From contig OZ024740.1 of NCBI GenBank assembly GCA_964016885.1, forward strand, positions 380,556,001 to 380,620,000: 64,000 bases of DNA, written 5' to 3'. The notes beneath the pieces are model-generated. The model did no database searches. It was not told where the DNA came from and worked only from the letters and a program-made list of their open reading frames with translations. The translations under genes and the position numbers were made by a program. Origin of the DNA: Eledone cirrhosa (taxonomy: Eukaryota). Below, one piece after another: positions 41,841 through 44,908 of the stretch. Positions within the stretch are counted from its first letter, which is position 1. The number at the start of each line of letters is the position of its first letter.

Positions 41841-43765
41841 CCAATAAACATCTTTCTTTTATATTACGGTGTCGATAAAATAAAGTACCAGTAATGCACT
41901 GAGTTTTTGCTGGCCTTGTGCCTAACGTAGAAACAATTATATATATAAATATGCTATATAGTTATTTTCTATCTAGAGAAAAGAAGGGAAATAATTCTTT
42001 GAAGGGAGGTAACTCTTATTCATAATCTTTTAAATAACTTTTATTGATACGTTTTCATTTTACATTTTCTATAATGATACTAATGTCATCATTTTATTAA
42101 TGATACTAATGTCATCGACTCTTGATGAATAAAGTACACTGCTAGCCAGTATCACGGATTGTAGAGGAGGAGAAATTCAAATAAATGAGTGGAACACATT
42201 CTATTGACCCTAGAAATATAAATCGATCGTTTTATATGAAATTCGAACGAACAAAAAGGAAAGTGTGCAAGGTATTTAGTCTGGAACTTAATTGCATCTG
42301 CAACTTCCATGATCCTACAATGTCAACTATTGTTTTAACTCTTTATAATTTATTTTCACGACTTCTTTTAGATTCCTCACATATGTTTAAATCTCGCAAG
42401 GATCGCCTTTATGTCTCATCTTCCTAGTGTCAAATAGTTAAGAAGTTCGTTTCACAATCGGGAAGTTCCCATTCGATATCAATACATAGAACTTTGGGCT
42501 TTTAACATATCCCCATTATAAGGGAAATTAGGTAGATGGAAATTGTGGAGAAACTAGTCTGATGGGCTGTAACTGTAATTAAAAGGGTCAGCTTTACGCT
42601 GATTCGGCTTTAGAATAAGTTTAAGATTATATGTTTCTGAGTATGTCAGAGACACTTTCATGATAATCTAATGAGCCGAGCCTACAGTTGGTTGAACGAC
42701 TAAATGCACACCATCAGAGACGAAAGAGGATCCATTATCTAATGTGTTTATCTCTTTTATAAAGGTGATTTGAGGAGGATTCGACTGCTAAACAATACTC
42801 TACGGCAACCCCCGCCCGTAAAGCATACCATCCGTATCAGGTGTCTTCAACTTACAAGCCACTTCATGAGAGATAACGAACCTGTTACAAAACTTTTACT
42901 ATGGGAGCCGACTAATATGAAACGCAAACGCGAAAGACCTCTCAAGAAATTAAAGAAAGTCATTGAGGAAAATAGAGAATTATCCGGTGAAGAACTGAGA
43001 GAGCTAATGTTGGACTGTGTAAGATGAAAAGGTTTTATCATGTCACCACAATGAAGTGGATAATTTTAGTAGTAGTTGGTTGCTAATTCTCACACGTTGA
43101 GCAACCAGTTAGATCAATGTTTCTCCTTTTATTCTTTTGTCCTACGGTCCACTTCGATTAAAAAGTAAAAAATAACACGCTCGTTCCAATATGATCGGAC
43201 AACGTAATTATATAGCATAGTGTATATACGGCCCATTCTGAAGAGCCCAGTCCTACTTCTAGAAAAACTGATGTTAAGGTTCCTTCGGTGGTTCATTGTC
43301 AATATTATAAATAAACAGTCGAGTGAGTATATTATAATTTTCGCTCGACCCAATACGTGTTTTCTTTTTTACTTTGATACTTATTTCTGTGCTAATGTAC
43401 ACACACACACACACACACACACACACACACACACACGCACACACACACACACACACACACACACACACACACACACACACACACACACACACACACACAC
43501 ACACACACACACACACACACACAACACACACACACACATATATATATATATATATATATATATATATATATATATGTATACGTACATACATATATGTATA
43601 CAGACGTATACACACATATATATATATGCACGTATCGGTTTACCGACCATTTATTATAATGCTTGGTTTGTTTGTTTGTAAACAAACAAACAAACAAACA
43701 GCCCGAATTACGCCGTACAGTGTTTAGGCAACCACGTCACCTTTTTGTTCAACACTGACACAGGA

Positions 43766-43808
43766 ACGATGTACTAGTTTCAAGCTTATTAGCTATCGTC
43801 AGCATCGT
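43766..43808 (-). ncRNA. Second, identical copy of the minimal type I hammerhead in inverted orientation
   Basis: Exact reverse complement of 44460-44502. Confidence 0.85.
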
Positions 43809-44459
43809 ATACCCTCCTGCCAGATGGCTGAACGTCTGAAAGTATATACTTTCCGTGTGCATATTAACGGCTGAGCAGCCCAATTTGCATATCGAGTGAG
43901 TTCAGTCGGCCGGGCACACCGAAAACGATAAATGGAATAGAATGAAACGAAATTTCATTTCTCACTCTTAGAACGGCGCTTACTTAAATGTAAGTATGTA
44001 TGTATCTATACGTACAATCATATATGTATACAGACGTACAGTAGTATGTATATATATACACACATGCACACATATATATATATATGCACGTATCGGTTTA
44101 CCGTACATTTATTATAATGCTCGGTTTGTTTGTTTGTAAACAAACAAACAAATGGTTAAACGTCTGAAAGTATATACTTTCCTTATGCATATTAACGGCT
44201 GAGCAGCCCAATTTGCATATCGAGTGAGTTCAGTCTGTATACATATATGTATGTACGTATACATACATACATACTTACATTTAAGTAAGTGCCGTTCTAA
44301 GAGTGAGAAATGAAATTTCGTTTCATTCTATTCCATTTATCGTTTTCGGTGTGCTCGGCCCACTGAACTCACTTGATATGCAAATTGGGCTCCTCAGCCG
44401 TTAATATGCATAAGGAAAGTATATACTTTCAGACGTTCAACCATCTGGCAGCAGGGTAT

Positions 44460-44502
44460 ACGATGCTGACGATAGCTAATAAGCTTGAAACTAGTACATC
44501 GT
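44460..44502 (+). ncRNA. Minimal type I hammerhead ribozyme
   Basis: Stem I ACGAUG/CAUCGU; CUGACGA 44466-72; stem II U-AGCU-aaua-AGCU-U (U.U closing); GAAA 44487-90; palindromic ACUAGU stem III; GUA 44494-96. Confidence 0.85.
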
Positions 44503-44908
44503 TCCTGTGTCAGTGTTGAACAAAAAGGTGACGTGGTTGCCTAAACACTGTACGGCGTAATTCGGGCTGTTTTTTTGTTTACAAACAAACAAACCGAGCA
44601 TTATAATAAATGTTCGGTAAACCGATACGTGCATATATATATGTGTGCATGTGTGTATATATATACATACTACTGTACGTCTGTATACATATATGTATGT
44701 ACGTATACATACATACTTACATTTAAGTAAGTGCCGTACTAAGAGTGAGAAATGAAATTTCGTTTCATTCTCTTCCATTTATATGTATATATATATATAT
44801 ATATAAAGGTTTACACAATATATATATATAAAGTCATAGATATATATGCGTTTTGCAACGGGTCACGTTGTGGCTCAATGAAGAATTAATAAATTAAATA
44901 ATCAGAGC

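Follow-up and report, generated by a model that had tools for sequence, protein, structure and literature searches.

Metazoan non-LTR retrozymes are tandem arrays of non-coding units of 150-450 bp, each carrying one type I hammerhead ribozyme, with low GC content, structured monomers and co-occurring Penelope elements (PMC7229834; 10.64898/2026.07.22.740005). Circular RNA has been shown for these elements (PMC7229834), and their mobilisation by Penelope elements has been proposed from co-occurrence and homology (PMC7229834; 10.64898/2026.07.22.740005). The layout typical of Penelope-like elements is a partial tandem with an inverted, 5'-truncated copy and a tail at one end (Craig 2021, PMC8557442). 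A Penelope protein studied in vitro nicks both strands and extends them, initiates at a pair of internal sites in the RNA between which the tail lies, and works mainly on uncut RNA (Frangieh 2024, PMC11167929). Neptune-type Penelope elements combine this layout with microsatellite targets and a hammerhead in the repeat (PMC8557442, PMC11167929, PMC4209133), and opposed hammerheads 100-700 bp apart are described in Schistosoma (PMC4209133). Chlamys elements such as MRC1 are non-coding, depend on Penelope elements and form multicopy head-to-tail insertions (PMC8557442), and newt satellite 2 is a hammerhead repeat with an internal Pol II promoter of the snRNA type (Coats 1994, cited in PMC2220036). 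As far as the accessible text of these accounts goes, the spread of retrozymes in animals and the tandem and inverted insertion of Penelope elements are both open questions.

In the window, by which we mean the whole 64,000-nt stretch of Eledone cirrhosa DNA analysed here (contig OZ024740.1), self-BLAST and a repeat search identified a locus with two opposed arms of a ~445-nt unit, 5' truncated and pointing outward (Table 1). We consider it very probable that the locus is a single insertion of a non-autonomous non-LTR retrozyme, copied into (TA)n by a Penelope-type reverse transcriptase (RT)-endonuclease from both cut strands. The unit has the retrozyme traits listed above and shares with the axolotl retrozyme HHR_Amex2 a U.U pair at the base of helix II (PMC7229834), whereas it is known from genome copies and RNA contigs rather than from circular RNA. 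Opposed arms, fixed end sites, (TA)n targeting and evidence of a shared template go beyond the retrozyme descriptions in the accessible portions of the same sources (PMC7229834; 10.64898/2026.07.22.740005). All of the Neptune-type features named above are present as well, but the element is without a reading frame, its tail is 56 nt against the 30-40 nt quoted (PMC8557442, PMC11167929), and it has no sequence tie to any autonomous family among the 50 Penelope loci examined. It resembles the Chlamys elements in being non-coding, putatively Penelope-dependent and inserted as head-to-tail copies; those elements, unlike the unit here, have a 3' end like that of their autonomous partner, and canonical hammerheads are missing from most of them (PMC8557442). 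The likeness to newt satellite 2 lies in the hammerhead repeat, while the candidate promoter here resembles that of U6 rather than U2 and is spaced differently. The class is known, as is each Penelope feature, and we did not find their combination with shared-template evidence described; nor did the literature consulted, with subscription papers and preprint supplements outside its scope, yield a cephalopod retrozyme or a two-armed retrozyme.

Table 1. Features of the locus at positions 43400-44806 of the window. Unit positions are numbered from the predicted cut site, on a 441-nt reference that is a natural copy in L009.
Position	Strand	Feature	Basis
43400..43575	.	Left target flank: (CA)n, then (TA)n microsatellite	Sequence
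43576..44235	-	Left arm, ~1.5 units, from unit position ~214 (43576) to 306 (44235); outer end is the short site; 5' end inward	Self-BLAST and repeat search
43766..43808	-	Type I hammerhead copy 1; predicted cut 43772/43771	Core and covariation
43883..43890	-	ATGCAAAT word resembling the host U6 upstream element; further copy at 44211-44218	Sequence likeness
44149..44152	-	Junction of the ~120-nt deletion that took the ribozyme out of the inner left unit	Sequence
44233..44235	.	Inversion junction, 3-nt overlap of the two 5'-truncated arms	Sequence
44233..44781	+	Right arm, 545 nt, 1.24 units, from unit position 182 (44233) to ~285 (44781); outer end is the long site	Self-BLAST and repeat search
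44378..44425	+	Promoter-like block: ATGCAAAT word, followed 42 nt on by a TATA box	Sequence likeness; host U6 offset 46-48
44435..44521	+	Hammerhead copy 2 with extended helix I; core 44460-44502, predicted cut 44496/44497	Core and covariation
44726..44781	+	56-nt 'tail' bounded by the two fixed end sites; only at the right end	End mapping; cf. PMC8557442 Fig. 2 legend and PMC11167929, in their accessible portions
44782..44806	.	Right target flank: (TA)n microsatellite	Sequence

A sequence-only reading of the window had described a tandem-then-inverted array with a strand switch near 44232, a deletion of the ribozyme from one unit, and two identical ribozyme copies. Both searches bear out this architecture. 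The switch is the short overlap between the arms, the inner left unit leaps from unit position ~392 to ~71 near 44150, with the ribozyme among the nucleotides skipped, and the two hammerheads are identical over 43 nt, with 1 base of difference over the 71-nt stretches around them. The arms form an inverted repeat of 348 nt at 96% identity (43688-44035 / 44233-44580). The further proposal that transcription from either direction gives a self-cleaving RNA and a long hairpin appears weak, since the ribozyme lies within this inverted repeat and in read-through RNA would pair with its own complement. The loss of the inner ribozyme is a local event, as the internal jumps listed for 88 other loci all leave the ribozyme in place. 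Two intact units on the same strand, by which Li 2026 (10.64898/2026.07.22.740005) defines an active locus in the accessible part of that preprint, are absent here. The locus is an old, partly deleted and ordinary copy of its family, about 3% off the family majority, and its inversion is a by-product of insertion, found at half of the sampled loci, and not a design of this locus.

The family itself is large. The exact 41-nt motif occurs 1,723 times in the 3.0-Gb genome, against 0 occurrences of a reversed-pattern control, and is thus not a product of chance; the ribozyme core was found 28,333 times genome-wide, as 15,853 and 12,480 copies of two core variants (controls 2 and 1). Units of the different subfamilies range from 420 to 540 nt and are arranged in tandem, each with a type I hammerhead and without a coding frame or LTR parts. 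The subfamily to which this locus belongs is an older one, with a median divergence of 2.9% from the majority.

By its sequence, the motif is a type I hammerhead, with a helix I of 6 bp that is extended by three more helices, a helix II of 4 bp over a U.U pair, a helix III of 2 bp, and a palindromic loop. The conserved core (CUGANGA, GAAA, UH) sits in a three-way junction, and its columns are invariant or nearly so across an alignment of 13 rows, made up of 12 subfamily copies and one sister family that is ~60% identical overall. On the structure drawn from the window sequence, 14 of 36 pairs are altered on both sides across these rows and 89% of cells are paired. Such two-sided changes affect three of the six pairs of helix I and three of the five of helix II, with helix III invariant, and most of them come from the single divergent row, the sister family. 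An Rfam scan at E<=5 returned 63 matches, none of them to a hammerhead; they were low-complexity miRNA matches that stayed below their cut-offs, and the hammerhead call therefore rests on the core and its covariation. The ribozyme appears to be under selection. The motif had been called minimal; it has the canonical metazoan layout and not the helix-III-less form, following the definitions in the accessible text of Cervera 2014 (PMC4209133). The U.U pair and the ACUAGU palindrome, which had been taken to suggest dimer-dependent cleavage, are both present. In the lowest-energy predicted fold, core bases are engaged in non-catalytic pairings, and the ribozyme therefore probably cuts slowly, and better as a dimer. 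Dimer dependence is plausible by analogy with axolotl HHR_Amex2, which likewise combines the U.U pair with a 2-bp helix III and is reported to cut better as a dimer (PMC7229834), and in the accessible part of another account 8 of 9 Xenopus dimers failed to cut (Li 2026, 10.64898/2026.07.22.740005).

We examined insertion anatomy at 88 distinct loci, drawn from the first 96 matches listed for the exact 41-nt motif, of which 7 were set aside as duplicates within the same array and 1 as an earlier locus. Two arms are present at 44 of the 88, and a convergent junction at 1. Outer ends fall at unit position ~228 (short) or ~285 (long), 56 nt apart, and inner ends are scattered. Among the 31 two-armed loci that could be classified, 26 pair a long end with a short one and 5 pair ends of the same type (P=1.9e-4); 13 of the 44 have an end outside both classes. 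The one-armed loci comprise 21 with a short end, 20 with a long end and 3 others. Arms overlap by 1-7 nt at 18 of 44 junctions. A microsatellite lies at 60 of 88 3' flanks against a background of 299/2,400 (12.5%), a comparison that the unit's own AT-rich block may inflate, and next to 36 of 44 inverted-arm ends against the same background. Some copies (L040, L042, L069, L093) instead have their end at position ~278, within a (TC)n tract and in step with local microhomology; target choice is thus not restricted to (TA)n.

The mirror-image arms and the fixed end points argue for insertion of the Penelope type. Of the two classes suggested for this array by the sequence-only reading, retrozyme-like and pLTR, both apply: the element is a retrozyme with Penelope insertion anatomy. 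In the mechanism that we propose, a Penelope enzyme would nick both strands of AT-rich DNA, and two reverse transcriptases would start at two internal sites, either on a single RNA or on separate RNAs of the same source locus. Both would read past the ribozyme site for more than one unit, on an RNA that would stay uncut while being copied, and the truncated ends of the two cDNAs would then be joined via a short overlap.

Evidence on the template comes from rare variants at 112 old-subfamily loci, a set from which duplicates, L052 and two loci with young-type copies had been removed. Per 100 sites, 0.42 rare variants are common to the opposite arms of a locus, 0.38 to copies within the same arm and 0.035 to different loci, so that opposite arms exceed the background 12-fold, with arm-to-arm sharing seen in only 14 of 48 two-armed loci. 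At the locus described here, the arms have three variants in common, each at 4-5% frequency, which occur together at no other sampled locus. From these shared variants we derive both arms from a single RNA or a single source locus, although gene conversion could also yield such sharing. Fold-back of a single cDNA was rejected where the arms are not nested. We also rejected cut linear monomers as the usual template: genome-wide, 10 breaks fall at the cut site against 21 and 9 at the two neighbouring positions, several of the 21 looking like 1-nt deletions, and with no excess at the cut site the template would be either uncut or circular. An RNA-editing scar was not supported, as the surplus of A>G over T>C (106 vs 76, P=0.012) was no longer significant without the two loci with young-type copies (87 vs 71, P=0.11); among shared variants the corresponding counts after dropping these loci were 11 vs 4 (P=0.07).

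For this insertion, we lean towards a transcript longer than the unit as the template. A variant at position 241 is found in the inner copy of both arms (43972, 44296) and is absent from the terminal copy (44738), and at L170 four variants occur in both arms but only in one and the same turn, the pattern expected of a heterogeneous multimer. That the same enzyme instead copied a ligated monomer circle repeatedly, following the model of Cervera and de la Pena, is quite possible, if short of probable, but such a circle would need reversion or conversion to produce these turn-specific variants. It agrees with young arrays of up to 5-6 units that differ internally by 0-0.5% (L131, L137, L143, L162), with the lack of a break excess at the cut site, and with the circular RNAs shown for coral, mussel and axolotl retrozymes (PMC7229834). 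Monomers are 64-68% paired and fold at z -4.5 to -7.6 in five of five circular monomers (30 shuffles), which would also suit a circle, but these scores owe much to simple-repeat palindromes. Some variants at L131 lie in every unit of both arms, a pattern that a circle predicts and that either model allows. Out-of-register sharing in the old subfamily is as high as in-register sharing, again in keeping with a circle, and overall the comparison by register gave no clear preference for circle or multimer (P=0.42 and 0.07, from pairs that are not independent).

A reading frame combining RT and GIY-YIG domains is present neither in the element nor elsewhere in the window. Autonomous Neptune-type Penelope elements with the same end layout do occur in the genome, where GIY-YIG matches are plentiful (10,596 candidates, of which 150 were scored and 50 Penelope loci among these examined). 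Their RT and GIY-YIG frames reach 938-1,096 aa, with tails of 37-62 nt and (TA)n flanks; three such families have tails of their own of 37, 48 and 61-62 nt. None of these 50 loci is an autonomous partner with matching terminal sequence, and three of them hold a copy of the unit, bounded by (TA)n in both cases inspected. It is improbable, in our view, that the unit represents a pLTR orphaned from an autonomous Penelope element, with its copies as 5'-truncated insertions of that element. The end anatomy would be the same, the loci examined are a small part of the candidates, and 24 of 57 Xenopus retrozyme families are homologous to known elements, nearly all of them Penelope termini, in the accessible part of Li 2026 (10.64898/2026.07.22.740005). 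However, the sequence past the long end site re-enters the unit, in arrays of many perfect turns, and the unit is fused to a reading frame at none of the loci examined, the copies in L211 and L212 being set off from the frame by (TA)n. The unit may nevertheless have pLTR ancestry. A DNA-level satellite or palindrome formed by local duplication and fold-back, or an assembly artefact, is highly improbable. AT-rich palindromic blocks and a locus spanned by no RNA contig would fit it, but the family is dispersed on many chromosomes with fixed outer ends and outward-pointing arms, the arms differ by 4% and are not sub-copies of each other (e.g. L053), and the ribozyme core is preserved at ~60% overall identity.

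Within the preferred reading of a retrozyme inserted by a Penelope enzyme, a more specific model is tentative and, on balance, unlikely: a self-promoting Penelope parasite whose unit would carry a snRNA-type promoter and yield multimer transcripts, with an enzyme dimer copying one uncut RNA from two starts into both strands. If true, the arrays would preserve a full record of Penelope integration, and the ribozyme would owe its retention to something other than template making. In three of five distinct upstream regions of host U6 genes, the word ATGC(A/T)AAT occupies -76 to -78 and is followed 46-48 nt later by a TATA box; none of five U2 upstream regions contains the word. All six units compared, including the sister family, carry a U6-like word upstream of the ribozyme with a TATA box 42 nt on. 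The same word also falls in a predicted RNA hairpin, and T-runs would stop Pol III. Local alignment of the U6 upstream regions with the unit gave nothing above shuffles except simple-repeat matches. The promoter matrix score was reached by 4 of 1,000 shuffles, a figure that is circular, the matrix having been built from 3 sites anchored on the same word. We treat a U6-type promoter in the unit only as a lead, suggested by resemblance with altered spacing. Tandem arrays of U6 genes (~1.8-kb spacing) and of U2 genes (~2.2-kb spacing) were recovered (L263-L280; L285-L307), and some of the U6 units have a SINE between the upstream word and the start.

Run X4 contains 107 contigs on the unit, which carry no strand, end, circle or level, and it also contains a spliced ribosomal-protein exon; together these indicate that the family is present in RNA, possibly passively. 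The summed depth of the X4 contigs is not taken as expression, as 28,000 copies read passively could explain it and loose ends enter (TA)n flanks. Runs X5 and X6 (organisms B and C) gave 6 and 8 short pieces, mostly under 95% alike. This one genome offers a 445-nt RNA with two mapped starts, copies in the tens of thousands, a subfamily that is very young and candidate enzymes that are close to intact, a combination that makes both of the questions raised at the outset testable in vitro.

Several related elements were observed in the window and among the other loci. At 41150-41850, nested inverted repeats (75 nt at 96%, with an inner near-perfect hairpin) had no match among the fetched loci. 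A second two-armed element adjoins the locus at 44810-45500; its inverted arms are 174 nt long at 98%, and a single hammerhead-like motif lies at 45144. It is about 74% like the hammerhead-bearing inverted repeats upstream of the Penelope frame in L211, and more copies lie in L027, L029 and L231. At 54240-54740, a unit of ~485 nt with a short terminal repeat is bounded by (TA)n on both sides; it has a hammerhead-like motif at 54590 and a 98% copy in L015, and appears to represent another young retrozyme-like family. A young Neptune-type family (L202, L201, L212) has a terminal hammerhead-like motif, in L202 about 1,050 nt past the reading frame, which seems to have the U3-A8 core variant described in the accessible text of PMC4209133; nested in L202 there is also a 459-nt tandem that carries a further hammerhead. 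The sister family, at L234:900-2400, has a 470-nt unit that is ~60% identical and has the two-armed layout, the two end sites and the promoter-like word in common with the unit described here, with its helix II closed by a G-C pair.
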